A stretch of 55,424 nucleotides of DNA from Clostridia bacterium (GCA_016291695.1 JAEEYG010000092.1:1-55424); one strand, 5' to 3'. Counted from the first letter of the stretch, positions 1 to 44,812 are shown. Notes: generated by a model not told the origin, from the letters alone. Made by a program: numbers and translations.

Positions 1-1752
1 GAAACTGGAGTTAGACTAAGATTTTTGTCAGCACTATCTAGACATTCCGATAAGCCTTGGAGCTTAGATGATGTTGATAGAACAATTAATATTGCTAAAA
101 GTCCATTTTTAGTTGGTGTTGACTTTATGGGTCAAGAAACAACTGCTTCACTTGATTTAAGGGAAGAATTAGAGATGTTTACCAGGTATGCTTGTACTCA
201 AGATCCAAATTTTGTTATTAGAGTTCATGCAGGTGAAAACCCGATTTTTAAGACTAATGTTTATGATGCGTTAAAAATTATTCAAGATGCACATGATAAA
301 TTGGAAGCTGAATTAGGGCATCCTGTTCCAATGCCACAGATTAGAATTGGACATGGACTGTACGGCTTAGACATTACAAGTGATGGTGAATGGCATGATG
401 TTCCACCTAATGGTGTTTTTGATTTAATAAAGAAAACTGGAGCAATTATTGAATTCAATATGAGCTCTAATCTTGCATTAAATAATATAAACGATATTTC
501 CAATATTCCTATAAAGAGATATGTGGATGCTGGTATACCTGTAGTTATTGGTACTGATGGTCACGGAATGTATTCTACGATTTCAGAGCAAGAGGTTTTG
601 CTTGCTAGTGCAGCGGGACTTGAGCCTGAGGATTTTGAAATTATTAGGCAAACAGAGGAAAGAGTTATTTCAAACGCGCTTGAAAGAGAACAAGAACATC
701 CTAGAATAGAAGATGTACCTGCATTGTATGAAGGCTTAAGGTATTCAACTCCAGAAGGTGGAAAAAGATTCACGGATAAGGTTGAAGAAAAGATTATAGC
801 TAGACAGGCCAGTATTGCTCATGAATTGCAACATAAAATAGCTTATACCGAAGCTATTACTGATGAAGGACAAATACTTGAAGATATTGAAGGAAAAGTT
901 CCTATACTAATTACTGGTGCATCCAAGAAATCTTGGCCGAATATTACACCCGACGATCAATTAAACATTGCAGTTGCTATGCAACTTTTAGCTGATACTT
1001 TAAATCCTGAGACTTCTTATGTTGTTACCGGTGGAACTAATTATGGTGCTGAGCGAACAATGCATGAAGCAGTACATAGGAGAAATCAAGAAGCGGAGTC
1101 AAAGCTACTTGTATTAGGAGCCTTTTCAAAGCTTATGTTACTAGGAACATTTACTATGGAAGCTGCACTTGAGGGTGAAGAGGGAATAGAAAAAGACACA
1201 ATTACTCATGCTATTGTTTTAAGATCAGAAGTTACTAAAAAGAAAGCAAAAACATGGAAAGACTTGCCAGATACGCAGTTAGACTTTGTTATAAAACGTG
1301 ATGGTCATATGATAGCAATAGGAGGAGGCTCTATTGTTAGTGATATGATACAAAGAGCTCATAATTTAGGCGTTGATATGCATTTGATGGATGGGCCTGA
1401 AGGAGCATCTACTGACAAGAGTAAAGCCTTAAGAGGAAATGATTACTCGTTTGTAACTCCTGAAGATTTGATAAGAAGACTATATAGTAGAAATCCGGCA
1501 TTATTTTTACCAGACTTTACTCTTGAAAAACTAGATGAATATCTAGCAAGGGCTAGAGAACAAGTTGGAAGCACAGAAATTCCTAATAATCCAGCAAACT
1601 TTGGCTTGGGTGCTATTTCAGAAATTGATAAATTAGTAACTGCAATCTTAAGAAACACTGGAAAAGAAAAGCTTGAGGGTGAAATTGCATCTGAATCAAA
1701 AGATGTTGATGATCCTGAAGTTAAACCCGAAGGGAGCGAGGTGACTGAATAA
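1..1752 (+). CDS. Adenosine/AMP-deaminase-like domain fused to a LOG/SLOG-like Rossmannoid domain (5' end cut by the window edge)
   Basis: Frame 1 is open from nt 1, with no stop before the TTG at 25, so the gene starts upstream of the window. The N-half has deaminase signature residues in canonical order: GVDFMGQE, VHAGE (nt 223-237), IGHG (nt 346-357), EFNMSSN and GTDGHG (nt 550-567). The N-terminal HxH metal motif would lie off-window. The C-half has Gly-rich Rossmannoid motifs VVTGGTNYGAERTM (nt 1021-1062) and IAIGGGSIVSDM (nt 1312-1347). The stop overlaps the next start (TAATG, 1750-1754). Confidence 0.6.
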   Translation, partial: ETGVRLRFLSALSRHSDKPWSLDDVDRTINIAKSPFLVGVDFMGQETTASLDLREELEMFTRYACTQDPNFVIRVHAGENPIFKTNVYDALKIIQDAHDKLEAELGHPVPMPQIRIGHGLYGLDITSDGEWHDVPPNGVFDLIKKTGAIIEFNMSSNLALNNINDISNIPIKRYVDAGIPVVIGTDGHGMYSTISEQEVLLASAAGLEPEDFEIIRQTEERVISNALEREQEHPRIEDVPALYEGLRYSTPEGGKRFTDKVEEKIIARQASIAHELQHKIAYTEAITDEGQILEDIEGKVPILITGASKKSWPNITPDDQLNIAVAMQLLADTLNPETSYVVTGGTNYGAERTMHEAVHRRNQEAESKLLVLGAFSKLMLLGTFTMEAALEGEEGIEKDTITHAIVLRSEVTKKKAKTWKDLPDTQLDFVIKRDGHMIAIGGGSIVSDMIQRAHNLGVDMHLMDGPEGASTDKSKALRGNDYSFVTPEDLIRRLYSRNPALFLPDFTLEKLDEYLARAREQVGSTEIPNNPANFGLGAISEIDKLVTAILRNTGKEKLEGEIASESKDVDDPEVKPEGSEVTE

Positions 1753-2882: not shown

Positions 2883-3066
2883 TAGTCATCACCAATTAGA
2901 TTATAGCATAAAAATCTTGTATTATTTGATATTTATTAAGTTTTTGTTACTAATTTGAACATTTTTAGAAGATTCTTGGCATCTATGATAAAATATGTAT
3001 GGTATTTGTAGGTATTAAGTACAGACGATTTTGAAATTGTTTGTTTCTTATAAAGAGGTGATTAGT

Positions 3067-3561
3067 TTGTTATCTATAGGAAAGGCAATGTATCAGGTCT
3101 GGCAAATTGTTGATAATTTGCCAGAAGATGAAAAAGCCTTTATATCTCAAGACTTAATAGATGAGATAAAAGGCACTATGGAAGTTGATGATAGTTTCAC
3201 AATTGATTTTGACATTCCGTTGGAAAAACAAAAATTAGATGATAAAGCCTGGAATATGCTTAAAAAAGTCCTTAAAAATGCTAAGAAGAATGGATATGGT
3301 AAAACTGATTCTGTAAATGTTGAAGCTCCTACCGAAGAAAAGGATATTAACCAGTTCAGGCTAGAGAATATAGAATTAAACCAAAAGCTTTCGCAATCAA
3401 AGAAGCTTATCATAGATATTAGTAAGTCTGTTGAAAAACTTCAAAATGAAAACAAAAAGCTAATGGAAGATAACGCTGAATTATTGTGTTGCATAAATAG
3501 AGTTCCAAAACTATTTAGAAAAATGTTTTTTAAAGATGCAACGACAAAGCTAATAAAGTAA
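3067..3561 (+). CDS. Small partner-family protein, paralog B, with a C-terminal coiled-coil extension
   Basis: The track ORF starts at 3031. The RBS aaagaggtg (3052-3060) favours TTG 3067, with ATG 3088 as an alternative. The segment ISQDLIDEIKGTMEVDDSFTIDFDIPLEKQKLDDKAWNML aligns gap-free with paralog A's VPNKILDFIKRNMDKNYSPNIDRNIPVYKQPLKKDTRVLL (13/40 identical by eye). The C-half is heptad-like (NQKLSQSKKLIIDISKSVEKLQNENKKLMEDNAELL) and ends in a basic tail, KLFRKMFFK. Confidence 0.65.
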   Translation: MLSIGKAMYQVWQIVDNLPEDEKAFISQDLIDEIKGTMEVDDSFTIDFDIPLEKQKLDDKAWNMLKKVLKNAKKNGYGKTDSVNVEAPTEEKDINQFRLENIELNQKLSQSKKLIIDISKSVEKLQNENKKLMEDNAELLCCINRVPKLFRKMFFKDATTKLIK

Positions 3562-3582
3562 ATGTGATATTAGGAGGTTTTT

Positions 3583-4683
3583 ATGAAAAAGTTGGGGTTT
3601 GGCTTAATGAGATTACCACGTCTTGATGGTTCAGATGAAATTGATATTGAACAAACGAAAAAAATGGTTGATTTGTTTTTAGATGCAGGTTTTACATATT
3701 TTGATACTGCTTTTGTATATAATGGAAGCGAAGAAGCAATTAAAAAAGCACTTGTTGAAAGACATCCTAGAGAATCTTATACTCTTGCTTCTAAAAATGC
3801 TGCCTGGGCTGGATGTAAATCAAGAGAAGATGCTATTAAGCAATTTGAAACTTCATTGGAAAGAACTGGAGCCGGATACTTTGATTACTATTTGCTTCAT
3901 AACTTAGGTAATGAAAGAACTAAGTATTTTGATGATTGGGATTTATGGAGATGGGCATTTGAAATGAAAGAACAGGGGAAGATAAAGCATGTTGGTTTTT
4001 CTTTCCATTCAACTCCAGAAGAGTTAGAGGAGATATTAACAAAGCATCCTGAAGCAGAATTTGTTCAACTTCAGATTAATTATGCTGATTGGGAAAGTGC
4101 AACTATTCAATCTAGAAAATGTTATGAGGTTGCTAGAAAACATGGAAAGCCTATAGTTGTTATGGAACCAGTAAAAGGTGGTATGCTTGCTACACCGCCT
4201 AAAACAGTCGAGAGTGTCCTTAAAGATGCTAATCCTAATTTATCCAATGCTTCTTGGGCTGTAAAGTATGCTGCAGACTTAGATGGAGTTATGGTTGTAT
4301 TATCTGGAATGAGTAATATTGAACAAATGCAGGATAACATTTCATATATGAAAGATTTTGAAGGCTTAAATGATAATGAAAGAAATGTTATTAAAAAAGC
4401 TCAAGAAGAATTAGATAAAATTCCCCTTATTCCATGCACATCATGCAACTATTGTGCAAAGGTATGCCCTATGAATATCGCCATATCAGCTTCTTTTAGT
4501 GCTATGAATATGTTAACTTTATATAATAATACAGAGGCTGCTAGAAGAGAAGTAGGATGGGATCTTCAAAAGGGAAAAGCTAGTGCTTCTGAATGCATCA
4601 AATGTGGAGCTTGTGAAGGTGTTTGTCCACAACATATACAAATCAGAGATGAGTTAGAAAATGTTGCTAAGCATTTGTGCTAG
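3583..4683 (+). CDS. Aldo/keto reductase with a C-terminal 4Fe-4S dicluster domain
   Basis: It has a typical AKR N-terminus (GFGLMRLP, FDTAFVYNGSEE) plus two ferredoxin Cys motifs, CTSCNYCAKVCP and CIKCGACEGVCP. The RBS is aggagg. Confidence 0.85.
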   Translation: MKKLGFGLMRLPRLDGSDEIDIEQTKKMVDLFLDAGFTYFDTAFVYNGSEEAIKKALVERHPRESYTLASKNAAWAGCKSREDAIKQFETSLERTGAGYFDYYLLHNLGNERTKYFDDWDLWRWAFEMKEQGKIKHVGFSFHSTPEELEEILTKHPEAEFVQLQINYADWESATIQSRKCYEVARKHGKPIVVMEPVKGGMLATPPKTVESVLKDANPNLSNASWAVKYAADLDGVMVVLSGMSNIEQMQDNISYMKDFEGLNDNERNVIKKAQEELDKIPLIPCTSCNYCAKVCPMNIAISASFSAMNMLTLYNNTEAARREVGWDLQKGKASASECIKCGACEGVCPQHIQIRDELENVAKHLC

Positions 4684-4836
4684 AGCTGGATTATTTTACA
4701 TAAATTATCCTTACTTGAATTTATGTTGAATAAAAATGTGCTTTTTATGTGAATTACAACAAATAATTGTTGCTCATATTGTATTAATATAGTATTATAA
4801 AAAGCAGTTGAATAATTACTCGAAAGGAGATTTTTT

Positions 4837-5643
4837 ATGAAAAATTTATTTAAGGTTTTAGCATTAGTTATGGTAATCTGCGTAGCAGTATTCGCCTTAA
4901 CTGGATGTGGAGAAGAAAAGAATGAGGGTGGTTCAACACCAGCTAATAATACAAATGTATCAAGCAACTCAATTGTTGGATATTGGAAGAATGATAGCTA
5001 TGGCGCTGACTTTATCTATACATTTAATGATGACGGAACAGGTAATTACTATGTAGCAGGTGCTGATATGCCATTTACTTATAAGACAAATGGTGATCAA
5101 TTATCTATTTTATTTGATGGTGATGATGCTTCTTTTGATACTACTTATGAAGTAAAAGGTAATGTTCTTAATGTTGCTGACTCTTTAGGTGAAGACACAT
5201 TATATGACAGAATAGATGCTAGTGAGCTTCCAAAGCCTGCTCAAATTGGAACAGCAGGGAGCAGCATGCCTCTTAAAGATAATCCAGATGAAGCTAGATC
5301 TCAGGTTGAATATTGTTTCCAAAACTGGATTGATAAAGCTTATGGTGATAAAATTACAGAGTCTAATGTTCATGTAGAAAAGATATATAGCTCAGAGGAT
5401 GAACAAAATGACGAAGCACTTAAAGCATTAAATCTTAATGAACAAGAAGTTGCTTTTGAAGTTAGATATGAACTTAAACCTGCTGAAGGCGTTGATGTAA
5501 ACGAACTTACAGCTGCAACTGGAGAGTATGACGAAGAAACTGGTTGGGTTATTGAGAAGTATAACTGCGGAGTTATTAGACCAACTGTAAATTCTGAAGA
5601 TCCTTATGAAGTTGATACTGAAAGATTAGGAACAGGCTGGTAA
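4837..5643 (+). CDS. Lipoprotein with a lipocalin-like N-domain
   Basis: It has a signal peptide with the lipobox LTGC, preceded by the RBS aaaggag. A Gly/Asp-rich beta segment is present (IVGYWKNDS...FNDDGTGNYY). Confidence 0.7.
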   Translation: MKNLFKVLALVMVICVAVFALTGCGEEKNEGGSTPANNTNVSSNSIVGYWKNDSYGADFIYTFNDDGTGNYYVAGADMPFTYKTNGDQLSILFDGDDASFDTTYEVKGNVLNVADSLGEDTLYDRIDASELPKPAQIGTAGSSMPLKDNPDEARSQVEYCFQNWIDKAYGDKITESNVHVEKIYSSEDEQNDEALKALNLNEQEVAFEVRYELKPAEGVDVNELTAATGEYDEETGWVIEKYNCGVIRPTVNSEDPYEVDTERLGTGW

Positions 5644-5663
5644 TAATATAATATTGCATGCTT

Positions 5664-5695
5664 AAAAGGGAAAGCTCAGCTTTCCCTTTATCATT
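5664..5695 (+). terminator. Rho-independent terminator
   Basis: The stem is gggaaagc (5668-5675) / gctttccc (5679-5686), followed by a T-rich tract. Confidence 0.7.
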
Positions 5696-5732
5696 ATTAT
5701 TTGATTTTATAATTTTTATGGGAGAACTATAA

Positions 5733-7208
5733 ATGAAGTCGAGAAATATGTTGAAAGGCCTTATTGCTGGTGTTATTTTATTTGTCATATGTTCCTTGGT
5801 CATAATTCTTAATGGCAATTCTTATACAATTAAAATGAAAAACACCTATGGCGCTGTAAGTTCTGAAGATGTAAATATTTCAATTGAACATGAAAATATT
5901 GCAAAACTATCTAATATAGTAGTAGATAAAGATACGGTATCTATTTCTTTTGATGCTATCTCTAAGGGGAAAACATATTTTAGTGTAATAATATCTGGCG
6001 AAGAAGTTGGAAGTCTTTATTGTATATTTGTACACAACTTTAACATTATTACACTAAATGAGTTTTTAGGTGACTGCTCTTATAGTTGGATTATACCGTT
6101 GTCATTAACAATCCTTATGGGATACATTTCTTTCTTATTAATTAAGTCTTTTTTGCAAAATTATAAAAAAGATATGTATCAATACAAAAACATTGCCTAT
6201 ATAGGTTTGATTATTATTATGGTAGCTTCAACAATTAGTCAGGCTTCACATATAGCTAATTATGGTGGGCTTATTCATACCGTTTATGACATATTAAAAA
6301 CTTTTTCATTAGCTATATTAATTTTTCCTTTGGCACTTGTTGTATCTTTTCTCGTCATTATTAGTAATGTGGTACTTATTAAGAAAGAAGGATTTAATGT
6401 AAAGAATACACTGGGTATTATTTTAGGAATTTCTCTTTGCTTCTTTACAGTACTTCCTGAGATTATGTACCTTCTATTATATGATTCTCCAATAATTGAC
6501 GTTCATAATTTAAATGGATACGGTGTATATGTATATGAGTTTATCGAAGCGATTATATATATTGGCGTTTCATATACGGAATGCATACTGCTAGGAACTA
6601 TTATTTTATCTATAAAGGTTGGTAGGCATATTCCAAGCTTTGATAAAGATGCGATTGTAATTTTGGGTTGTCAAGTAAAAAAAGATGGAAGTCTTACAAA
6701 TCTTTTAAAAGGTAGAGTAAATAGAGCAATTGAATTTGGAAAATTGCAAAAGGATAATACTGGAAAAGAATTATTGTATATTCCATCTGGTGGAAAGGGA
6801 AATGATGAAGTTGTTTCCGAAGCACAAGCTATGAAAAACTATCTTATTTCACAAGGGATTGATGAAAACCGTATTCTTATGGAGGATAACTCTAAAAATA
6901 CTGCTGAGAATATAGAGTTTTCAAATAAGCTAATCTGTGAAAGAACTAGTAATCCTAAAGTTGCGTTCTCAACTACTAATTATCATGTTTTTAGAGCTGG
7001 TAACTTAGCCTCAACTCTAGGATATAAATATGAAGGAATAGGAGCTAAGACAAAAAATTATTTTTGGATTAATGCTTTTATAAGAGAATTTGTAGCAACA
7101 ATGATTAATGAAAAGAAAAAGCATATGTTAGTAACTTTTTGCATCATAGTCGCAACAATTGTTTTAACAATACTAGAGTATTTGAATAATAATATTCAAT
7201 TTATATAA
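5733..7208 (+). CDS. Polytopic membrane protein with a C-terminal YdcF/ElyC (DUF218) domain
   Basis: It has several hydrophobic helices followed by DUF218-like motifs: IVILGCQVKKDGS, LKGRVNRAIEF, IPSGGKG...SEAQAM..YL and NSKNTAENI. Confidence 0.75.
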   Translation: MKSRNMLKGLIAGVILFVICSLVIILNGNSYTIKMKNTYGAVSSEDVNISIEHENIAKLSNIVVDKDTVSISFDAISKGKTYFSVIISGEEVGSLYCIFVHNFNIITLNEFLGDCSYSWIIPLSLTILMGYISFLLIKSFLQNYKKDMYQYKNIAYIGLIIIMVASTISQASHIANYGGLIHTVYDILKTFSLAILIFPLALVVSFLVIISNVVLIKKEGFNVKNTLGIILGISLCFFTVLPEIMYLLLYDSPIIDVHNLNGYGVYVYEFIEAIIYIGVSYTECILLGTIILSIKVGRHIPSFDKDAIVILGCQVKKDGSLTNLLKGRVNRAIEFGKLQKDNTGKELLYIPSGGKGNDEVVSEAQAMKNYLISQGIDENRILMEDNSKNTAENIEFSNKLICERTSNPKVAFSTTNYHVFRAGNLASTLGYKYEGIGAKTKNYFWINAFIREFVATMINEKKKHMLVTFCIIVATIVLTILEYLNNNIQFI

Positions 7209-37253: not shown

Positions 37254-38246
37254 ATGGATTTCATTAAAAGTATCAAAGAAAAAGCAAAGAATAGTATAAA
37301 AACTATAGTTCTACCTGAGTCTTATGATATTAGAGTTTTAGAAGCTGCAAGAAAAGTAACTGATGAGGGCTTTGCAAAAGTTGTTTTGATAGGAAATAGA
37401 GAAGAAATCAATAATATTTCAAAGGGAATAAGATTAGATGATATAGAAATAATTGACCCTAAAAATTCAGAAAAACTTGATTTCTACACAAATACACTAT
37501 ACGAACTTCGTAAAGAAAAAGGCATGACTTATGAAAAAGCAGTAGAAACACTTAAGAATAATATATATTTTGGCACAATGATGATTAAATGTGGAGATGC
37601 TGATGGACTAGTTGCTGGAAGCATTTGTTCAACTTCTGATACATTAAGACCTTCTTTGCAAATAATAAAGACTGCACCTAATGTAAAACTAGTATCATCT
37701 TTCTTTGTAATAGATGTTCCAAATTGCGAATATGGGGATAATGGTCTATTTTTATTTTCTGATTGCGGTTTAAACGTTAACCCTAATGCAGAGGAACTTT
37801 CAGAAATAGCTATTTCTACCGCTAATACTTGGAAATCTTTATTTGGAACAGAGCCAAGAATTGCAATGCTTTCATATTCAACTTTAGGAAGTGCTCCGCA
37901 GGTTGAAGGAATGAATGTTAAAGTTCAGGAAGCAACTAAACTAGTTAGAGAAAAAAGACCTGATTTATTAGTTGAAGGAGAGGTTCAACTTGATGCTGCA
38001 ATAGTTCCTTCAGTTGCTTCTAAAAAAGCTCCAGAAAGTAGTGTTGCAGGAAAAGCAAATGTTTTAATCTTCCCTGATATTAACGCTGGAAATATTGGTT
38101 ACAAATTAACTCAAAGACTTGCTAAAGCAGAAGCTTATGGACCTATTACTCAAGGTATAGCGAGACCAGTCAATGACTTATCTAGAGGATGTTCTGCAGA
38201 AGATATTGTTGGTGTAATAGCAATTACTGCTTTTCAAGCTCAATAA
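37254..38246 (+). CDS. pta: Phosphate acetyltransferase
   Basis: 330 aa; motifs are IVLPES.D.RVLEAA and SRGCSAEDIV..IAITA. The RBS is aaggag. Confidence 0.93.
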   Translation: MDFIKSIKEKAKNSIKTIVLPESYDIRVLEAARKVTDEGFAKVVLIGNREEINNISKGIRLDDIEIIDPKNSEKLDFYTNTLYELRKEKGMTYEKAVETLKNNIYFGTMMIKCGDADGLVAGSICSTSDTLRPSLQIIKTAPNVKLVSSFFVIDVPNCEYGDNGLFLFSDCGLNVNPNAEELSEIAISTANTWKSLFGTEPRIAMLSYSTLGSAPQVEGMNVKVQEATKLVREKRPDLLVEGEVQLDAAIVPSVASKKAPESSVAGKANVLIFPDINAGNIGYKLTQRLAKAEAYGPITQGIARPVNDLSRGCSAEDIVGVIAITAFQAQ

Positions 38247-38255
38247 TTTTGATTT

Positions 38256-38283
38256 AAAGCCCTATTTATAGGGCTTTTTTTTA
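38256..38283 (+). terminator. Strong terminator directly after pta
   Basis: The stem is agcccta (38258-38264) / tagggct (38269-38275), followed by a T8 run. Confidence 0.85.
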
Positions 38284-38367
38284 ATGTAATCTTAATCTTA
38301 GATTAATACCTTTGAAACACATAATTGATATAATTTTAATAGATTATTATTATTATTAGGTGATAAT

Positions 38368-40872
38368 ATGAATTTTGAAGAACTTAAGGGAAAAATTCAA
38401 GAAGATGTAACGGCGCTTGAACAAGCTACTAATCGTCTTGAATTATTAATACAATTTTTATCTGAAAAATATAATGATTCAGCTTTACATTATTTAAATA
38501 TAGAATTTTTTATTCAAGAAACAGCTTCTATTAGAAATGAATTGTTTGTTCTAGATGACTTTTGTCAGCTTCATTCATTGGCGAAACCATTCAATCTCCA
38601 GGATTATTCTGGTCTAGATTTACCTTCGGATCCTATTCTTCTATCAGATGGCAGCGAACAAACAAATACTAGCACACAGAATGTTGGATATACTGATGAA
38701 GAAATAAGATTACTCTCGCCACTTAGCAATTATCTTTATAGCTTATTGTCAGACATCCGCGAACACCAATATCAATTGTCTAATTCTTTTACTTCATTGA
38801 CTTATCCCATCTTATCTAGTCTAGGGCAAACTGTCCAAGATTATCCGGAAAATATGAAGTTAACCGACTTTATTAATGAGTCTGGTGTTGATGTAAATGC
38901 TCTTGATTTTCAATTGTTGAGTTCTGACGAAGTTAACAAGCTATATGGTTTTATTACTATAAGTTATAATCCTGAAGATCAAGATTTATCTTCACCAGAA
39001 ACACCAAAGAAAACAGATGTTATACAAGAGGATATTATTCGTCCGTTTGGAAGGAATATATCACAAATGACTGCAGACTATACTAAACTCTGGGATGAAA
39101 GAAGAATACTAATTGACCTAATTCAAAATCATTTACCATTGGATTCTGGTGGTAAAAATACAATATTACAATTTCATGTAGTTGAAGGAACACATAAAGA
39201 AGGCTGGTATGACATATCTGAAATTGGAGGATTTACAGATCAAGAAATAGATGGATTTCAGATTATTGATGATGGAGTTGGATATCAAAAAGAATATCTT
39301 TACTATTATGCTTCAAATAAGAGTGAAGAAAGTGCTGGTAAATTTGGTGAAGGATTAAAAGTTGCTCTTGGAGCGGCGCTTGCAAGAGGATGCAAGGTTG
39401 AAGTTCAGTCGCACTATGAGCCAGAAGCGGGCTCACAAAATGAACCTCTTGATTGGAGTGCTACAGAAGAATTAGCAGAATCTGGTGCAATAAGACCAAT
39501 TATAGTTGATTATAGAGAGGGAGCTGATATTAAAAAAGGAAGTCTCACTCGAGTAATGAACATAAATCCTGCGTTTGTTAGACAGCTTAGAAATATTAGA
39601 GAAAGTGTATTGTATTTTCACCCTTCAAAACCAGTTGCAGAAACTATGTATGGTTCAATTTTAGAATTAGAGCCAGCTGATATAATGCAAGCATCAGGGA
39701 GAGTATATGTAAAGGGGCTTTTATGGCCTGACAATAAAGATACAATCTTTTCTTATAATTTTACTCATTTAGATGTTAAAAACAGAGATAGACTATGCCT
39801 TGAAAGATGGTCTGAATTAATACCTGCAATTGAATCCGTCCTTTCCGATTTGTCCGATAAAAAAGTAATAAAACAAATATTGCAAACAATTAGCAATTAT
39901 AGTTCAACCGAAAGAGAATATGCAGAATTAAGTGCTGTTATATTTCATGATTATAACATTTATCATCCTGATATTTTGCAAGCTTGGTTAGAATCATTTA
40001 AAGAAGTATTTGGTGAAAGGGCATGCGTTATTGCCAGAAACTCATCCAACCCAGCAGCATGTGACTATGCGAGACATATGGGGCTTATACCAATTGTTTT
40101 ACCAAATTCGTGGGCACTTGCTTTAAGTAGAGTTAGGGGCAAAGATGGTGAAAAAATCTTATCTTACGAAGAAGAACATGATTCTGCAATTCGTAATGCA
40201 GTACCTGTTCCAGCAAATGAGATAACTGAAGATGAGAAAATTGTAGTTGATTGGCTACTACACGATATAGTTACCTTGTTACCACATGAAAATGGCAAAC
40301 CAAGGATATCCAATATCGAAATATATGATTATCCTAAAGATTACTTTGGTTCAAAGGCTGCTGGCTTTGCAAAATTAGGAGATACTATACATATTTGCAG
40401 AGATACATTTACAAATATTTTTGATTTACTCCATGTTGTTTTCCACGAATCTGGTCATGCTTATACGGGTGCAGGTGACCCTGATAAAGAATTTAGAGAT
40501 TTCTTATCAAGAGTTCTTGCAATTCAAGCTGCAAATAATGTTCTTGGCCCTGAAAGGTTAAGTCAAATAAGAAGTCTAAGTCGATTTGCAACAAGACCAG
40601 AACCAAGTGCAATGGAAGAATTCTTTTATGATGCATTTAAACCTTTTCAAGATCCATATACTTTTCAGTTCTTATCTAAAACTGATTCTACACCATCTGA
40701 ATTAGGACCTTTTGCAAAATTGTTAAGTGAAATGGGCTATGGAAGTAAAATGGATGAGCTAAAAAGAGATATTGATTCTTTCATTTCTCGTCTCGAAGGT
40801 AAAGGTTATAATCTCGAACAAATCACGAGAGTATTAGAAATGCGTAAAAGAGAAGTAAATCCTGAAGAATGA
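38368..40872 (+). CDS. GHKL (Bergerat-fold) ATPase fused to a C-terminal HExxH zincin metallopeptidase-like domain, with an unassigned N-terminal region of about 240 aa
   Basis: The N-box-like motif is RILIDLIQNHLPLD (from nt 39103, N254), G1 is IIDDGVGY (nt 39262-39285), G2 is GKFGEGLK (nt 39337-39360) and the zincin motif is VVFHESGHAYTG (HESGH = nt 40444-40458). Composition is native AT-rich. Confidence 0.7.
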   Translation: MNFEELKGKIQEDVTALEQATNRLELLIQFLSEKYNDSALHYLNIEFFIQETASIRNELFVLDDFCQLHSLAKPFNLQDYSGLDLPSDPILLSDGSEQTNTSTQNVGYTDEEIRLLSPLSNYLYSLLSDIREHQYQLSNSFTSLTYPILSSLGQTVQDYPENMKLTDFINESGVDVNALDFQLLSSDEVNKLYGFITISYNPEDQDLSSPETPKKTDVIQEDIIRPFGRNISQMTADYTKLWDERRILIDLIQNHLPLDSGGKNTILQFHVVEGTHKEGWYDISEIGGFTDQEIDGFQIIDDGVGYQKEYLYYYASNKSEESAGKFGEGLKVALGAALARGCKVEVQSHYEPEAGSQNEPLDWSATEELAESGAIRPIIVDYREGADIKKGSLTRVMNINPAFVRQLRNIRESVLYFHPSKPVAETMYGSILELEPADIMQASGRVYVKGLLWPDNKDTIFSYNFTHLDVKNRDRLCLERWSELIPAIESVLSDLSDKKVIKQILQTISNYSSTEREYAELSAVIFHDYNIYHPDILQAWLESFKEVFGERACVIARNSSNPAACDYARHMGLIPIVLPNSWALALSRVRGKDGEKILSYEEEHDSAIRNAVPVPANEITEDEKIVVDWLLHDIVTLLPHENGKPRISNIEIYDYPKDYFGSKAAGFAKLGDTIHICRDTFTNIFDLLHVVFHESGHAYTGAGDPDKEFRDFLSRVLAIQAANNVLGPERLSQIRSLSRFATRPEPSAMEEFFYDAFKPFQDPYTFQFLSKTDSTPSELGPFAKLLSEMGYGSKMDELKRDIDSFISRLEGKGYNLEQITRVLEMRKREVNPEE

Positions 40873-40882
40873 GGTGAAAAAT

Positions 40883-41170
40883 ATGAATGATATAAAAGTT
40901 AATTCGGAAGTATTAGGTGTTTTAAAGATTCTAGACAAAGAAACTTTACATAGACTACCTGATGACGTCTATGAATACTTAGTAAAGAATTCAAAAGAAG
41001 ACTTAATACCAGACATTCCATACGGAACACCTCTAAATGAAATGCCAATTTCAAGAGAAGCACAGGCATTTGTTACGATGTTAAATCTGGCTTTCTTTTG
41101 TAAGGATGGTAAGGAAAAAGAGACAATTATGAAAAGAATAATACAAAACGAAAAGAAGTATAATAGCTAA
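40883..41170 (+). CDS. Small partner protein, paralog C
   Basis: The start is 11 nt after the upstream stop (TGA 40870-40872), behind the RBS tgaggtga; GTG 40874 is also possible. It aligns gap-free with paralog A (see findings). Confidence 0.75.
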   Translation: MNDIKVNSEVLGVLKILDKETLHRLPDDVYEYLVKNSKEDLIPDIPYGTPLNEMPISREAQAFVTMLNLAFFCKDGKEKETIMKRIIQNEKKYNS

Positions 41171-41186
41171 TTTTTTCCTTGAATTA

Positions 41187-41215
41187 TTGATTAAGCACGA
41201 ATTTTATGGTAGAAT
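41187..41215 (+). promoter_or_regulatory. ackA promoter
   Basis: TTGATT (41187-41192), 17 nt, then TAGAAT (41210-41215), with TG at -15/-14. Confidence 0.55.
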
Positions 41216-41251: not shown

Positions 41252-42466
41252 ATGAAAGTATTAGTTGTTAATTGTGGAAGTTCTTCACTTAAATATCAAT
41301 TAATTGATATGGAAAATGAAAAAGTTCTTTGCAAAGGAAAATGTGACAGAATAGGCGAGACTGGAGAAGGAGCTATAGGTAAGCCATTTATTGAATATAA
41401 AGGTAAATCTGGCAAAAAGATTATAGAAGAAATCCCTCTTCCAGATCATGTTGCAGCATTTAGAGCTGTAGTTAGATATATGACTGATGCTGAAGAAGGT
41501 GTTGTAGAAAACTTATCTGAGATTTCTGCAATAGGACATAGAATAGTTAATGCTGGTCCTTTCTTCTACAAGACAACACTAGTTACAGATGAAGTAATGA
41601 CAAAATTTAAAGAGAGTTCAATTCCTTATGCACCACTTCATAATCCTGCTGCACTTCAAGGTATTAATGCTTGTTTTGAAACAATGGAAGGAATTCCTCA
41701 AGTACTTGTATTTGATACAACATTCCATCAAACAATGCCTGATAAAGCATTTATGTATGGTGTACCATATGATTGGTATGCAAAATACGGAGTAAGACGT
41801 TATGGTGCTCACGGAATGTCACATCAATTTGTTACAGAAGAAGCTGCCAAACTATTAAATAAGCCTTTAAACGAATTAAATATGATTTCATGCCATTTAG
41901 GAAATGGTTCATCTATTACTGCTATTAGAAATGGTAAATGCGTAGATACATCAATGGGATTTACTCCATTAGAAGGACTTGTTATGGGTACTCGTAGTGG
42001 AGATATTGATCCAGCTATTATGGAATTTGTCATGGATAGAGAAAACATGGATATCCATGAAATGTTAAAGACTCTTAACAAAAAATCAGGTCTTCTTGCA
42101 CTTTCTGGAAAAACTGGAGATGTTCGTGATTTAAGAATGCTTAGAGATCAAGGCGATGAAAGAGCAAAAATGGCACTTGAAGTGTTGTCTTATAGAATAA
42201 GAAAGTACATCGGTGCTTATATGGCTGTTCTAGGACATGTGGATTGTATTACATTTGAAGGTGGTATTGGAGAACACAATCCTGACGTTGTTAAAGCTGC
42301 AGTAGATGGTTTAGAAGAATTTGGAATCAAATATGATGACTCACATATTAATGATGAAATGTATGAAGGAGTTGTTAGTACCGAAGATTCTAAAATCAAA
42401 ATGTTTGTTATAGCAACTAACGAAGAGATTGTTATTGCTAGAGAAACACTAAACGCAATTAAATAA
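41252..42466 (+). CDS. ackA: Acetate kinase
   Basis: The start is ATG 41252 behind aaaggag. Motifs are MKVLVVNCGSSSLKYQL, HRIVNAG, GAHGMSH and FEGGIGE. Confidence 0.95.
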   Translation: MKVLVVNCGSSSLKYQLIDMENEKVLCKGKCDRIGETGEGAIGKPFIEYKGKSGKKIIEEIPLPDHVAAFRAVVRYMTDAEEGVVENLSEISAIGHRIVNAGPFFYKTTLVTDEVMTKFKESSIPYAPLHNPAALQGINACFETMEGIPQVLVFDTTFHQTMPDKAFMYGVPYDWYAKYGVRRYGAHGMSHQFVTEEAAKLLNKPLNELNMISCHLGNGSSITAIRNGKCVDTSMGFTPLEGLVMGTRSGDIDPAIMEFVMDRENMDIHEMLKTLNKKSGLLALSGKTGDVRDLRMLRDQGDERAKMALEVLSYRIRKYIGAYMAVLGHVDCITFEGGIGEHNPDVVKAAVDGLEEFGIKYDDSHINDEMYEGVVSTEDSKIKMFVIATNEEIVIARETLNAIK

Positions 42467-43597: not shown

Positions 43598-44812
43598 ATG
43601 AAAAAGGTATTATTATTAGTCTGTGTTATATCAATAATTGTTTTAATTGCATCATATTTCATAATTACTAATGGCTCAAGAATTAAGCCAGAAGTTGGAT
43701 ACCCTACATATACTACTAATCCGACAGAGGAACCATTACCAACTGAGGATACAAGAATTGTAATTCCAGTTGTTACTGCAAATCCAAATCCAACAATAGC
43801 TGTAGTTACTCCTATTCCTCCGGTAGATAAACCTGAAGATATTAATACATCTGGAGAATCTGGTGACAATACTAGTGGCGAAGTTATTACAAATAAAGAA
43901 TTTGCTCAGGATAGTATTATTTTTATATTGGATAATAGGATACTTTGTGGTTTAAATAGTGGAAAATGGACTTTTGACACAAATTATAAGCCATCAGATA
44001 TTTTAAGTAGTTCATCTTATTACACTTATAACAATAAAGGCGTAAAAGGAATTACTACAAAACTATATGCAACATGTAGTCTAAAGTATAAAAACTTTAC
44101 TGGTGTATTTTCAGAAAACTTTATAAACTTATCTTCAAAGTATGATAATAGTACTCATATTGCTACTTTTAATTTACCAGTTTCAGTACCACAGGATTTA
44201 GACTATAGCTACAACTATAGAGATGGAGAATTAAAATTCGAAGACAAAGGATTCTTTGTAACAAATGCATCATATGCTATTAATTTTGCATCCGTTTATG
44301 CTAATTCATATGATCCTTTGAATCTAACAAATATAGTAGAGAATAACTACATTAGAAAAGTAATTAATCTATCAAATAATGTAAAAGCATACATTGGAGC
44401 CTTTATAGCGGAAAATGAAATATCTAGTGATTTAAGTTATGCTGTTCCATTTGCTTGTACAGCAGATATAGATAGAGATAATAAGGATGAAACATTATAC
44501 TTTATTACTTCATATATGGGAAATGGTGATGAGGTCGATACTGACTTCGTTGCAGAATATGGTCATTACACTATGCTTTTGGTAGAAGACAACAATGAAG
44601 TAAATCTAATCTATTGCGACTATATACCAGCACAAGCAGAAAAAGAAACAATTGAGTTAGAGAAGAAGTATGATAATGCTTTATATAGACCTATAATAGT
44701 TGACTTGAATGATGATGGTATTTATGAACTAATCTTCAAGCTAAGAAGCAGTTCAGGAAATGAAACCATAATTTATATTTATGATAATGGAGAATACATT
44801 AGAGTTAAATAA
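43598..44812 (+). CDS. Membrane-anchored extracytoplasmic protein with a Pro/Thr linker and FG-GAP/VCBS-like Asp-rich loops
   Basis: It has an N-terminal TM, a PT-rich linker, and the segments ADIDRDNKDE and VDLNDDGIYE. Function is unknown. Confidence 0.5.
   Translation: MKKVLLLVCVISIIVLIASYFIITNGSRIKPEVGYPTYTTNPTEEPLPTEDTRIVIPVVTANPNPTIAVVTPIPPVDKPEDINTSGESGDNTSGEVITNKEFAQDSIIFILDNRILCGLNSGKWTFDTNYKPSDILSSSSYYTYNNKGVKGITTKLYATCSLKYKNFTGVFSENFINLSSKYDNSTHIATFNLPVSVPQDLDYSYNYRDGELKFEDKGFFVTNASYAINFASVYANSYDPLNLTNIVENNYIRKVINLSNNVKAYIGAFIAENEISSDLSYAVPFACTADIDRDNKDETLYFITSYMGNGDEVDTDFVAEYGHYTMLLVEDNNEVNLIYCDYIPAQAEKETIELEKKYDNALYRPIIVDLNDDGIYELIFKLRSSSGNETIIYIYDNGEYIRVK

Follow-up and report, generated by a model that had tools for sequence, protein, structure and literature searches.

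The coupling of a GHKL ATPase to an effector is a known theme, exemplified by the paraMORC proteins and by rIIA. Peptidases can also serve as effectors: the Lit protease of the e14 prophage is a zincin that acts as a triggered intracellular effector in abortive infection, and the M85 enzymes (NleC, AIP56) are secreted effectors directed against eukaryotic NF-kB. We know of no Hsp90 protein fused to a protease. Sacsin is a chaperone with repeated Hsp90-like modules (PMC3710099), and prokaryotic paraMORC GHKL proteins are components of restriction-modification (R-M) systems, in a description of which fusions with nucleases and TIR domains, and none with a peptidase, are given (PMC2292703). Here, we describe a two-gene cassette lying between pta and ackA in a Clostridia bacterium (GCA_016291695.1, JAEEYG010000092.1:1-55424; this whole stretch of 55,424 nucleotides is called the window below). 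A large gene encodes an 834-aa protein predicted to unite a GHKL ATPase with a zincin metallopeptidase, and is followed by a small gene encoding a partner of 95 aa. The parts of the large protein are familiar, but no description of a GHKL-zincin system or fusion was found in the searchable literature.

We read the cassette as a lineage-specific accessory insertion encoding a soluble ATP-gated metalloprotease that acts, with its small partner, as a conflict module, an interpretation for which we judge the case to be evenly poised. The insertion itself emerged from a comparison of the locus across relatives. The pta and ackA genes are commonly adjacent and co-transcribed in Clostridia, and an ackA-based scan of species representatives (80 loci) found the end of pta no more than 200 nt upstream of ackA in 36 of them. 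In the nine nearest loci with both genes on the contig, the insert was absent and the pta-ackA gap measured 16-173 nt (ackA identity of 81-84% in four of these loci and 64-65% in the other five). Apart from the window, a 3.1-kb gap was found only in a sister species, the metagenome-assembled genome (MAG) Tb.RUG.116, which has the same pta-large-small-ackA order. Amino-acid identity between the window and the sister species was 81% for pta, 42% for the large protein, 60% for the small protein and 98% for ackA, and the flanking DNA was 70-81% identical. This pattern indicates that the pair was inserted in a common ancestor of the two species and then kept. An earlier note on this DNA, drawn from the sequence alone, had proposed an accessory module dropped into a core metabolic operon and had suggested that relatives be compared; the pair indeed proved to be variably present rather than universally conserved. 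An empty site in the same species was sought in two metagenome scans, which yielded only more distant relatives, and a search for direct or inverted flanking repeats marking the insertion of a mobile element returned only short, imperfect AT-rich matches. The cassette has a GC content of about 0.31-0.35, equal to that of its flanks, in agreement with the host-like composition noted earlier. The features of the locus are as follows:

37254-38246, + strand: pta (phosphotransacetylase), the flank 5' of the insert (PF01515 PTA_PTB, E 3.6e-124)
38256-38283, + strand: terminator-like element after pta (hairpin 38256-38277, 9-bp stem with 4 GC pairs, then TTTTTTT)
38325-38353, + strand: promoter-like TTGATA-17-TATTAT before the large gene (10/12 consensus match; consensus match only)
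38368-40872, + strand: large gene, 834 aa, predicted GHKL ATPase-zincin fusion (open reading frame, ORF; 44 homologues; AlphaFold model)
38368-39066, + strand: lineage-specific N-terminal region, residues 1-233 (acidic, low-confidence helices)
39067-40032, + strand: predicted Hsp90-like GHKL ATPase module and following alpha/beta domain, residues 234-555 (Foldseek, invariant columns)
39115-39129, + strand: N-box D250/N254 of the ATPase module, the other motifs of which are G1 DDGVGY, G2 GKFGEGLK and NRDR at residues 472-475
40033-40593, + strand: helical linker and predicted minimal zincin domain, residues 556-742 (invariant motif, domain model, Foldseek)
40444-40458, + strand: zincin motif H693-E694-x-x-H697, accompanied by T700, D704 (40477-40479) and R710
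40594-40872, + strand: lineage-specific helical C-terminal tail, residues 743-834, and stop codon (window and sister-species proteins only)
40883-41170, + strand: small partner gene, 95 aa, predicted soluble (ORF; 60% identity to the sister-species gene at the same position)
41187-41215, + strand: promoter-like TTGATT-17-TAGAAT with an upstream TG, before ackA (consensus match only)
41252-42466, + strand: ackA (acetate kinase), the flank 3' of the insert (PF00871, E 4.9e-144)

The large protein is, on its predicted structure, a member of the GHKL (Bergerat-fold) superfamily. Residues 240-740 were modelled by AlphaFold with a predicted local distance difference test score (pLDDT) of 80-96, and residues ~235-555 fold as a GHKL ATPase in this model. 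A Foldseek search of the PDB with the ATPase and the domain that follows it placed TRAP1 (E 9e-11), Hsc82 and HtpG on top, then TopoVI-B and MutL, with sacsin SR1 lower in the ranking. Several homologues exceeded the Pfam cut-offs for HATPase_c or HATPase_c_3, in support of the GHKL claim of the earlier note. The motifs quoted there were all present, in columns of a 25-sequence family alignment that are invariant or almost so (D250, N254, H255, D259, G262, G303, G305, G324, G327, E328, G329, K331, H693, E694 and H697); N254, D301/G303/G305 and G324/G327/G329, corresponding to the Mg-binding N-box Asn of GHKL proteins, G1 and G2, were invariant or at least 90% conserved. The note had named MORC/paraMORC-type proteins as background, and here the model refines the picture: the ATPase is structurally nearest to Hsp90 and not to MORC. 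No S5-containing MORC structure figured among the top 50 Foldseek matches, although a domain does follow the ATPase module, and neither a DNA-binding domain nor an S5 transducer fold was detected in the large protein.

The likeness to the Hsp90 family (HtpG, TRAP1, Hsc82) consists of the Bergerat-fold ATPase, an Hsp90-type G2 box (GxFGxG) and the best Foldseek matches, and is structural only, with template modelling (TM) scores of 0.2-0.3. No HSP90 family match was obtained for the large protein in Pfam or NCBIfam, a direct sequence search of the PDB gave noise only, and the protein differs from Hsp90 in having no Hsp90 C-terminal dimerisation domain, in its Asp at the position of the catalytic Glu, in a 25-aa insert after the N-box and in its fusion to a protease. 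The resemblance to sacsin lies in the tandem Hsp90-like modules of most homologues. With MORC and paraMORC proteins, the family shares a GHKL ATPase with a C-terminal effector, a sporadic, mobile distribution and the presence of one relative in a type I R-M operon; in contrast to them, it has a zincin peptidase in place of a nuclease or TIR effector, no S5 domain is detected, no linkage to superfamily II (SFII) helicases is seen and linkage to R-M genes is rare. The phage GHKL proteins form a further point of comparison. The large protein matched the PHROGs profile phrog_6077 (E 7e-10), an unnamed family, and in BFVD the best structural matches were uncharacterised phage GHKL proteins (E 7e-17, TM 0.67), followed by rIIA (range E 7e-17 to 1e-3). 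T4 rIIA-type and phrog_6077 proteins resemble the large protein in their N-terminal GHKL domain, variable C-terminus and conflict setting; they differ in that rIIA is membrane-associated and has no zincin, and the phage GHKL proteins are themselves uncharacterised.

By fold and motif, the large protein is also predicted to be a zincin metallopeptidase, as the earlier note had supposed from its HExxH motif. In a separate AlphaFold model of the C-terminal domain (pLDDT 87.7), residues ~620-740 fold as a minimal zincin, with helix H621-637, strands E649-654, E666-668 and E673-677, and the HExxH helix H684-700. The 13 best matches of this model in a Foldseek search of the PDB were all zincins (probability up to 0.99, E ~1e-2), and included 3c37, proabylysin 4jiu (probability 0.99), BlaR1, ZMPSTE24 and selecase. 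H693, E694, H697, T700, D704 and R710 were invariant, defining the motif HExxHxxTGxxD. The nucleotide- and metal-binding residues appear to be all intact; the catalytic N-box Glu is replaced by Asp. The minimal zincins (the minigluzincins proabylysin and selecase, the M48/M56 cores, and YgjP/SprT-like proteins) share with the domain the backing helix, three-stranded sheet and HExxH helix, and provide its top structural matches and its best sequence-profile match; the domain differs from them in its third ligand, probably an Asp located at +7 relative to the second His rather than a Glu or His, and in its fusion to an ATPase, where they are free-standing or membrane-embedded, and the E-values are marginal. 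The active-site signature has the same pattern as that of AIP56 (HEIVHHVTGSSD), a match at the level of the motif only (E 0.93 to AIP56). In AIP56 and NleC, the Asp of HExxHxxTGxxD is the third zinc ligand, and D704, at +7 from H697, is probably the equivalent candidate metal ligand here. The resemblance to peptidase M85 extends over ~35 residues at E ~1, with nothing pointing to common descent, and the Pfam M85 match on the homologue P0003 was weak (E 0.004-0.012, below the Pfam cut-off); another homologue, P0042, gave a weak SprT-like match. Lit is a functional analogue only, as it has no ATPase module, and no sequence relationship to it is claimed.

Most relatives of the large protein are 970-1170 aa long and, in the family alignment, consist of two tandem modules, each carrying QNHLPxDSxG, DDGxGY, GxFGEGLK and NRDR, followed by the C-terminal HExxH domain. 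Such two-ATPase-module forms occur in candidate phyla radiation (CPR) bacteria, DPANN archaea and gut Clostridia. The window form is therefore derived: one ancestral ATPase module has been lost, the acidic N-terminus is new and a tail has been added at the C-terminus. Residues 1-233, the region of about 240 aa that the earlier note had left without an assignment, have a pLDDT below 50, are acidic (38 D/E versus 14 K/R) and are common only to the window and sister-species proteins. A profile of the family from which these two proteins had been left out gave no alignment with residues 1-231 of the window protein and aligned with residues 232-723, comprising the second module and the HExxH domain, at E 1e-100. 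The possibility that the N-terminal region is a degenerate first ATPase module was rejected, as it has no similarity to module 1 of the other Clostridial homologues. The C-terminal tail (residues 743-834) has a low to medium pLDDT and is likewise confined to the window and sister proteins. In a metagenomic relative (L155), the two-module large gene is split into an ORF of 251 aa containing the first GHKL module (2922-3677) and an ORF of 747 aa (3758-6001), through either a frameshift or a true split.

The small gene encodes 95 aa from an ATG codon or 98 aa from an upstream GTG; the ATG start matches the homologues, the N-termini of which read MND.KVNSEV. It is tightly coupled to the large gene, as already noticed, but the intergenic gap is 10 nt and not the 11 nt first counted, with GAGGTGA overlapping the large-gene stop codon. 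The conserved residues of the small protein are E9, P26, N36, I56, L67, C73, E78, N89 and E90. In all Clostridial loci examined (L001, L004-L007, L147-L152 and L155), the small gene lay directly 3' of the large gene; in Clostridial relatives, overlap of the stop codon with the next start codon is frequent, and the pair is sometimes followed by another, longer paralogue of the small gene. No small partner was found at the CPR and DPANN loci examined. The co-occurrence of the two genes outside the window, on which the earlier note had let its interpretation depend, held for every Clostridial locus examined; the partner is absent from the CPR/DPANN and compact forms. In the Scatovivens-like contigs (L147-L152 and L004), the pair lies in a shuffled block with adhE and an APH-type kinase gene on one side and HD-domain genes and uvrB on the other; the HD genes change their position with respect to the pair from contig to contig, and in some of these contigs a lipase-like (Mbeg1-like) protein and an LRR protein come afterwards.

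The small partner belongs to a promiscuous family that pairs with several unrelated enzymes. A profile search retrieved 1545 clusters, the members of which measure 95-160 aa and carry no Pfam domain, and the profile gave only chance-level matches to the PDB. Upstream of the more distant members lie genes for large proteins unrelated to one another (one of 542 aa, one of 369 aa that has an HExxH motif, and a pair of 490 aa and 105 aa); the 542-aa protein was considered as a relative of the large protein and rejected on comparison. Long members of this family have a cationic amphipathic helix at their C-terminus (hydrophobic moment, muH, 0.56-0.78), which the 95-aa cassette version does not have. 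A second member is present within the window itself (1752-2198, + strand; 148 aa, hidden Markov model E 1.7e-20) and has the cationic amphipathic C-terminal helix. Its start overlaps the stop codon of an ORF that runs off the start of the window (1-1752, at least 583 aa), the N-terminal part of which is adenosine-deaminase-like (PDB adenosine deaminases, E 2e-5). By eye, this ORF also has a LOG/SLOG-like Rossmann part (VVTGGTNYGAERTMHEA...IGGGSIV). Membrane segments were predicted in neither the large nor the small protein of the cassette.

The transcription signals of the cassette are putative. The hairpin and T-run after pta and the TTGATT-17-TAGAAT element before ackA, both of which had been pointed out before, are present; promoter-like matches were, nevertheless, no more frequent here than in shuffled sequence (23 found, 28.6 expected), and the two promoter-like elements listed are hence consensus matches only. 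The terminator probably came with or after the insert, because it cannot fit an ancestral spacer of 16-57 nt. No tRNA genes or Rfam elements were found within the window.

Several observations concern the surroundings of the insert. AckA is 98% identical at the protein level but ~81% identical at the DNA level between the window (41252-42466) and locus L001 (10801-12015), and the adjacent Pta is 81% identical at the protein level (window 37254-38246, L001 6667-7659). The high AckA identity would reflect an unusually strong constraint or, possibly, a recombination boundary at the cassette. In a distant relative, the metagenome contig Ga0247609_10041710 (L269), blastn revealed two apparent tandem ackA-like copies after pta. 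Downstream from ackA in the window (43598-44812, + strand), a 404-aa protein with an N-terminal hydrophobic segment and no family found is 46% identical to its sister-species orthologue, and thus diverges as fast as the large protein of the cassette.

The family of the large protein is much wider than the cassette. A word-indexed search yielded 44 relatives; when the search was made exhaustively with a profile, 3563 cluster representatives reached E ≤1e-3. A tblastn search of INPHARED phages gave no match. The clade of closer relatives of the large protein, called the window-type clade here, is rare (64 loci among 185,579 species representatives) and is found mostly in Patescibacteria and DPANN archaea, with few representatives in gut Clostridia, Omnitrophota and Melainabacteria; no conserved neighbour was found for it beyond subclade synteny. 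One such synteny is that of archaeal single-module homologues from DPANN/archaeal MAGs (L033, L039, L040, L049, L050, L054 and L063), in which a small-domain methyltransferase gene precedes the homologue. Downstream, after 33-131 nt, comes an unrelated ORF of 84 aa, and then a 184-aa protein and an MgtC/DUF4010 protein on the opposite strand. Compact relatives of ~470 aa, annotated 'ATP-binding protein', were found by tblastn of plasmids and are linked to the family core by hhalign (probability 99%, E 9e-18). They have a canonical N-box ELIANALDE, in which the Glu is kept, together with G1, G2, NRER and a C-terminal HExxHxxTxxxD zincin motif. This compact form is present at at least 490 species-representative loci across Bacteria and Archaea (43-63% identity), has no fixed partner gene, and is represented by ~12 full-length copies in IMG/VR contigs. 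Precomputed annotation gives PF25856 (MPN635_N) as a weak match on the window protein and as a match on most homologues, and our local Pfam scan did not report this family.

The neighbours of the compact form differ from locus to locus. In one case, the compact gene is flanked by hsdS and hsdR within a type I R-M operon on pSR56, an operon that ends in a gene for a YgjP-like zincin; a relationship between that zincin and the fused one was considered and rejected (hhalign probability 9%). Other compact loci adjoin SIR2, pAgo and PLD genes, OLD and exonuclease genes, or GIY-YIG and DUF2220 genes. The commonest of 143 immediate neighbours were OLD/ABC-type ATPases (6-7), RmuC (6) and Holliday-resolvase-like endonucleases (5), and R-M genes lay within 6 kb in 4 of 79 loci. 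No R-M genes were found near the window cassette or near window-type loci, and linkage to SFII helicases was likewise not seen there.

The family is patchy and behaves like a horizontally mobile conflict gene, and for this reason its role would most likely be defence against phages or mobile elements, the case for which is circumstantial. The defence reading draws on the context in distant relatives and on the distribution, and not on a match to a known system: the window proteins had no match above threshold in Pfam or NCBIfam and none in PADLOC-DB v2 at E up to 1. The inability of the earlier note to name a described defence or toxin-antitoxin (TA) system with this architecture was, in this respect, well founded.

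In the mechanism that we propose, ATP binding would close or dimerise the GHKL module, as in other GHKL proteins, possibly on a ligand (a foreign protein or DNA), and the resulting conformational change would expose or activate the fused protease. The protease could then cleave a protein target, either an invader protein or, as in Lit-type abortive infection, a host protein. The translationally coupled 95-aa partner may be an inhibitor or other regulator, an adaptor or a substrate. The two-module forms might be built-in pseudo-dimers, in which case the window form would have to homodimerise. ATP hydrolysis, as opposed to binding, is uncertain, because the catalytic N-box Glu is Asp in the window-type clade. 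A broader proposal, which we offer tentatively and regard as somewhat doubtful, is that GHKL ATPase-zincin fusions are widespread, unrecognised single-protein immune sensor-effectors, in which an invader cue closes the Hsp90-like module by means of ATP and unleashes the protease; the CPR/DPANN version would be two-module and pseudo-dimeric, and in gut Clostridia it would have been joined by a small adaptor, drawn from a promiscuous family that also serves other effectors, such as the adenosine-deaminase fusion.

A series of findings weighs against the interpretation of the cassette as a conflict module. Nine diverse family members gave no match to PADLOC-DB v2 at E up to 0.1, and MPN635 of Mycoplasma pneumoniae, the source of the family name MPN635_N, is a non-essential chromosomal gene (PMC9825166). 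Members of the window-type clade are surrounded by housekeeping genes rather than defence islands, and only a minority of loci of the compact form have defence-like neighbours, a single one lying inside an R-M operon. Matches to zincins are modest (Foldseek E ~1e-2, sequence-profile E 0.12-0.9), the catalytic N-box Glu, four residues before the Asn, is an invariant Asp (D250) in the window-type clade, and, of the two ATPase modules present in all other Clostridial homologues, one has been lost from the window lineage. Finally, the divergence of the cassette is at the fast end of the syntenic block, in which orthologues are 36-98% identical (median ~70%), but it is not an outlier, as other syntenic proteins are 36-48% identical.

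The main rivals to a conflict module are a role in proteostasis, suggested by the likeness to Hsp90 and sacsin and by the housekeeping neighbours, and a role linked to DNA or R-M. In the first, the Hsp90-like ATPase of a proteostasis or stress factor would recognise misfolded or specific clients for degradation by the zincin, an FtsH-like function built on a GHKL rather than an AAA+ engine and kept mainly by organisms with small genomes. The ranking of Hsp90-family chaperones as the best structural matches is consistent with this role, as are the tandem modules of the 970-1170-aa forms, which recall sacsin (PMC3710099), the predicted cytoplasmic, soluble nature of the large protein, and the concentration of the window-type clade in CPR, DPANN and reduced Clostridia. 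However, a proteostasis factor would not be expected to be rare among species representatives, patchily distributed even among close relatives and devoid of a conserved neighbourhood, with compact relatives on plasmids, in phages and in defence-like islands; the non-essential status of MPN635 (PMC9825166) also argues against it. We consider this explanation unlikely.

Slightly less probable, in our view, is an accessory of R-M or DNA repair, in which a MORC- or MutL-like clamp, driven by ATP, would deliver a SprT/YgjP-like protease to proteins bound to DNA, such as stalled restriction complexes, DNA-protein crosslinks or the replication proteins of invaders. The compact homologue between hsdS and hsdR, in an operon that itself ends in a YgjP-like zincin, is the kind of context that this role would predict, and R-M genes close to 4 of 79 compact loci, RmuC and resolvase-like nucleases as recurrent neighbours, MutL and TopoVI-B among the structural matches, the weak SprT-like match on P0042 and the R-M association of paraMORC GHKL proteins (PMC2292703) all point the same way. 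These indications are offset by the lack of a detectable DNA-binding domain or S5 transducer fold, by the absence of MORC from the top 50 Foldseek matches, by the rarity of the R-M linkage, which does not extend to the surroundings of the window cassette, and by the dissimilarity of the zincin domain to the YgjP-like protein of that very operon (hhalign probability 9%).

A TA-like addiction pair, with a protease toxin restrained by the small protein and stabilising itself at the locus, seems improbable. The tight coupling of the two genes (10 nt apart here, with their stop and start codons overlapping in relatives), the pairing of the promiscuous small partner with several different enzymes and the persistence of the pair at one site in two diverged species are all features that such a pair could display, but a small partner is entirely missing from the compact and CPR/DPANN forms, the large-gene-first order and the size of 834 aa are atypical for type II TA systems, and neither protein matches a TA family model. 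A decaying remnant, that is, a truncated, functionless relic of a two-module ancestor persisting by chance, is highly improbable, since the missing first ATPase module, replaced by a low-complexity, low-confidence N-terminus, and the fast sequence divergence are set against a frame of 834 aa that is intact, and retains every invariant catalytic residue, in two species with flanking DNA only 70-81% identical, and a partner gene that is likewise intact.

If the conflict-module interpretation is correct, and the cassette is a defence or abortive-infection system, it would embody a new immune logic, in which a protease is gated by a GHKL ATPase and not by an AAA+, STAND or cyclic-nucleotide sensor. 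It would also provide a function for several thousand genes annotated 'ATP-binding protein' or 'hypothetical', including some of the few candidate conflict genes of CPR and DPANN organisms. The promiscuous small family (~1500 clusters, with no Pfam model) may mark further systems of this kind, as yet unknown, in gut Clostridia. The locus itself provides an example of an accessory module splitting a normally co-transcribed core operon, pta-ackA, with a putative terminator and putative promoters of its own.

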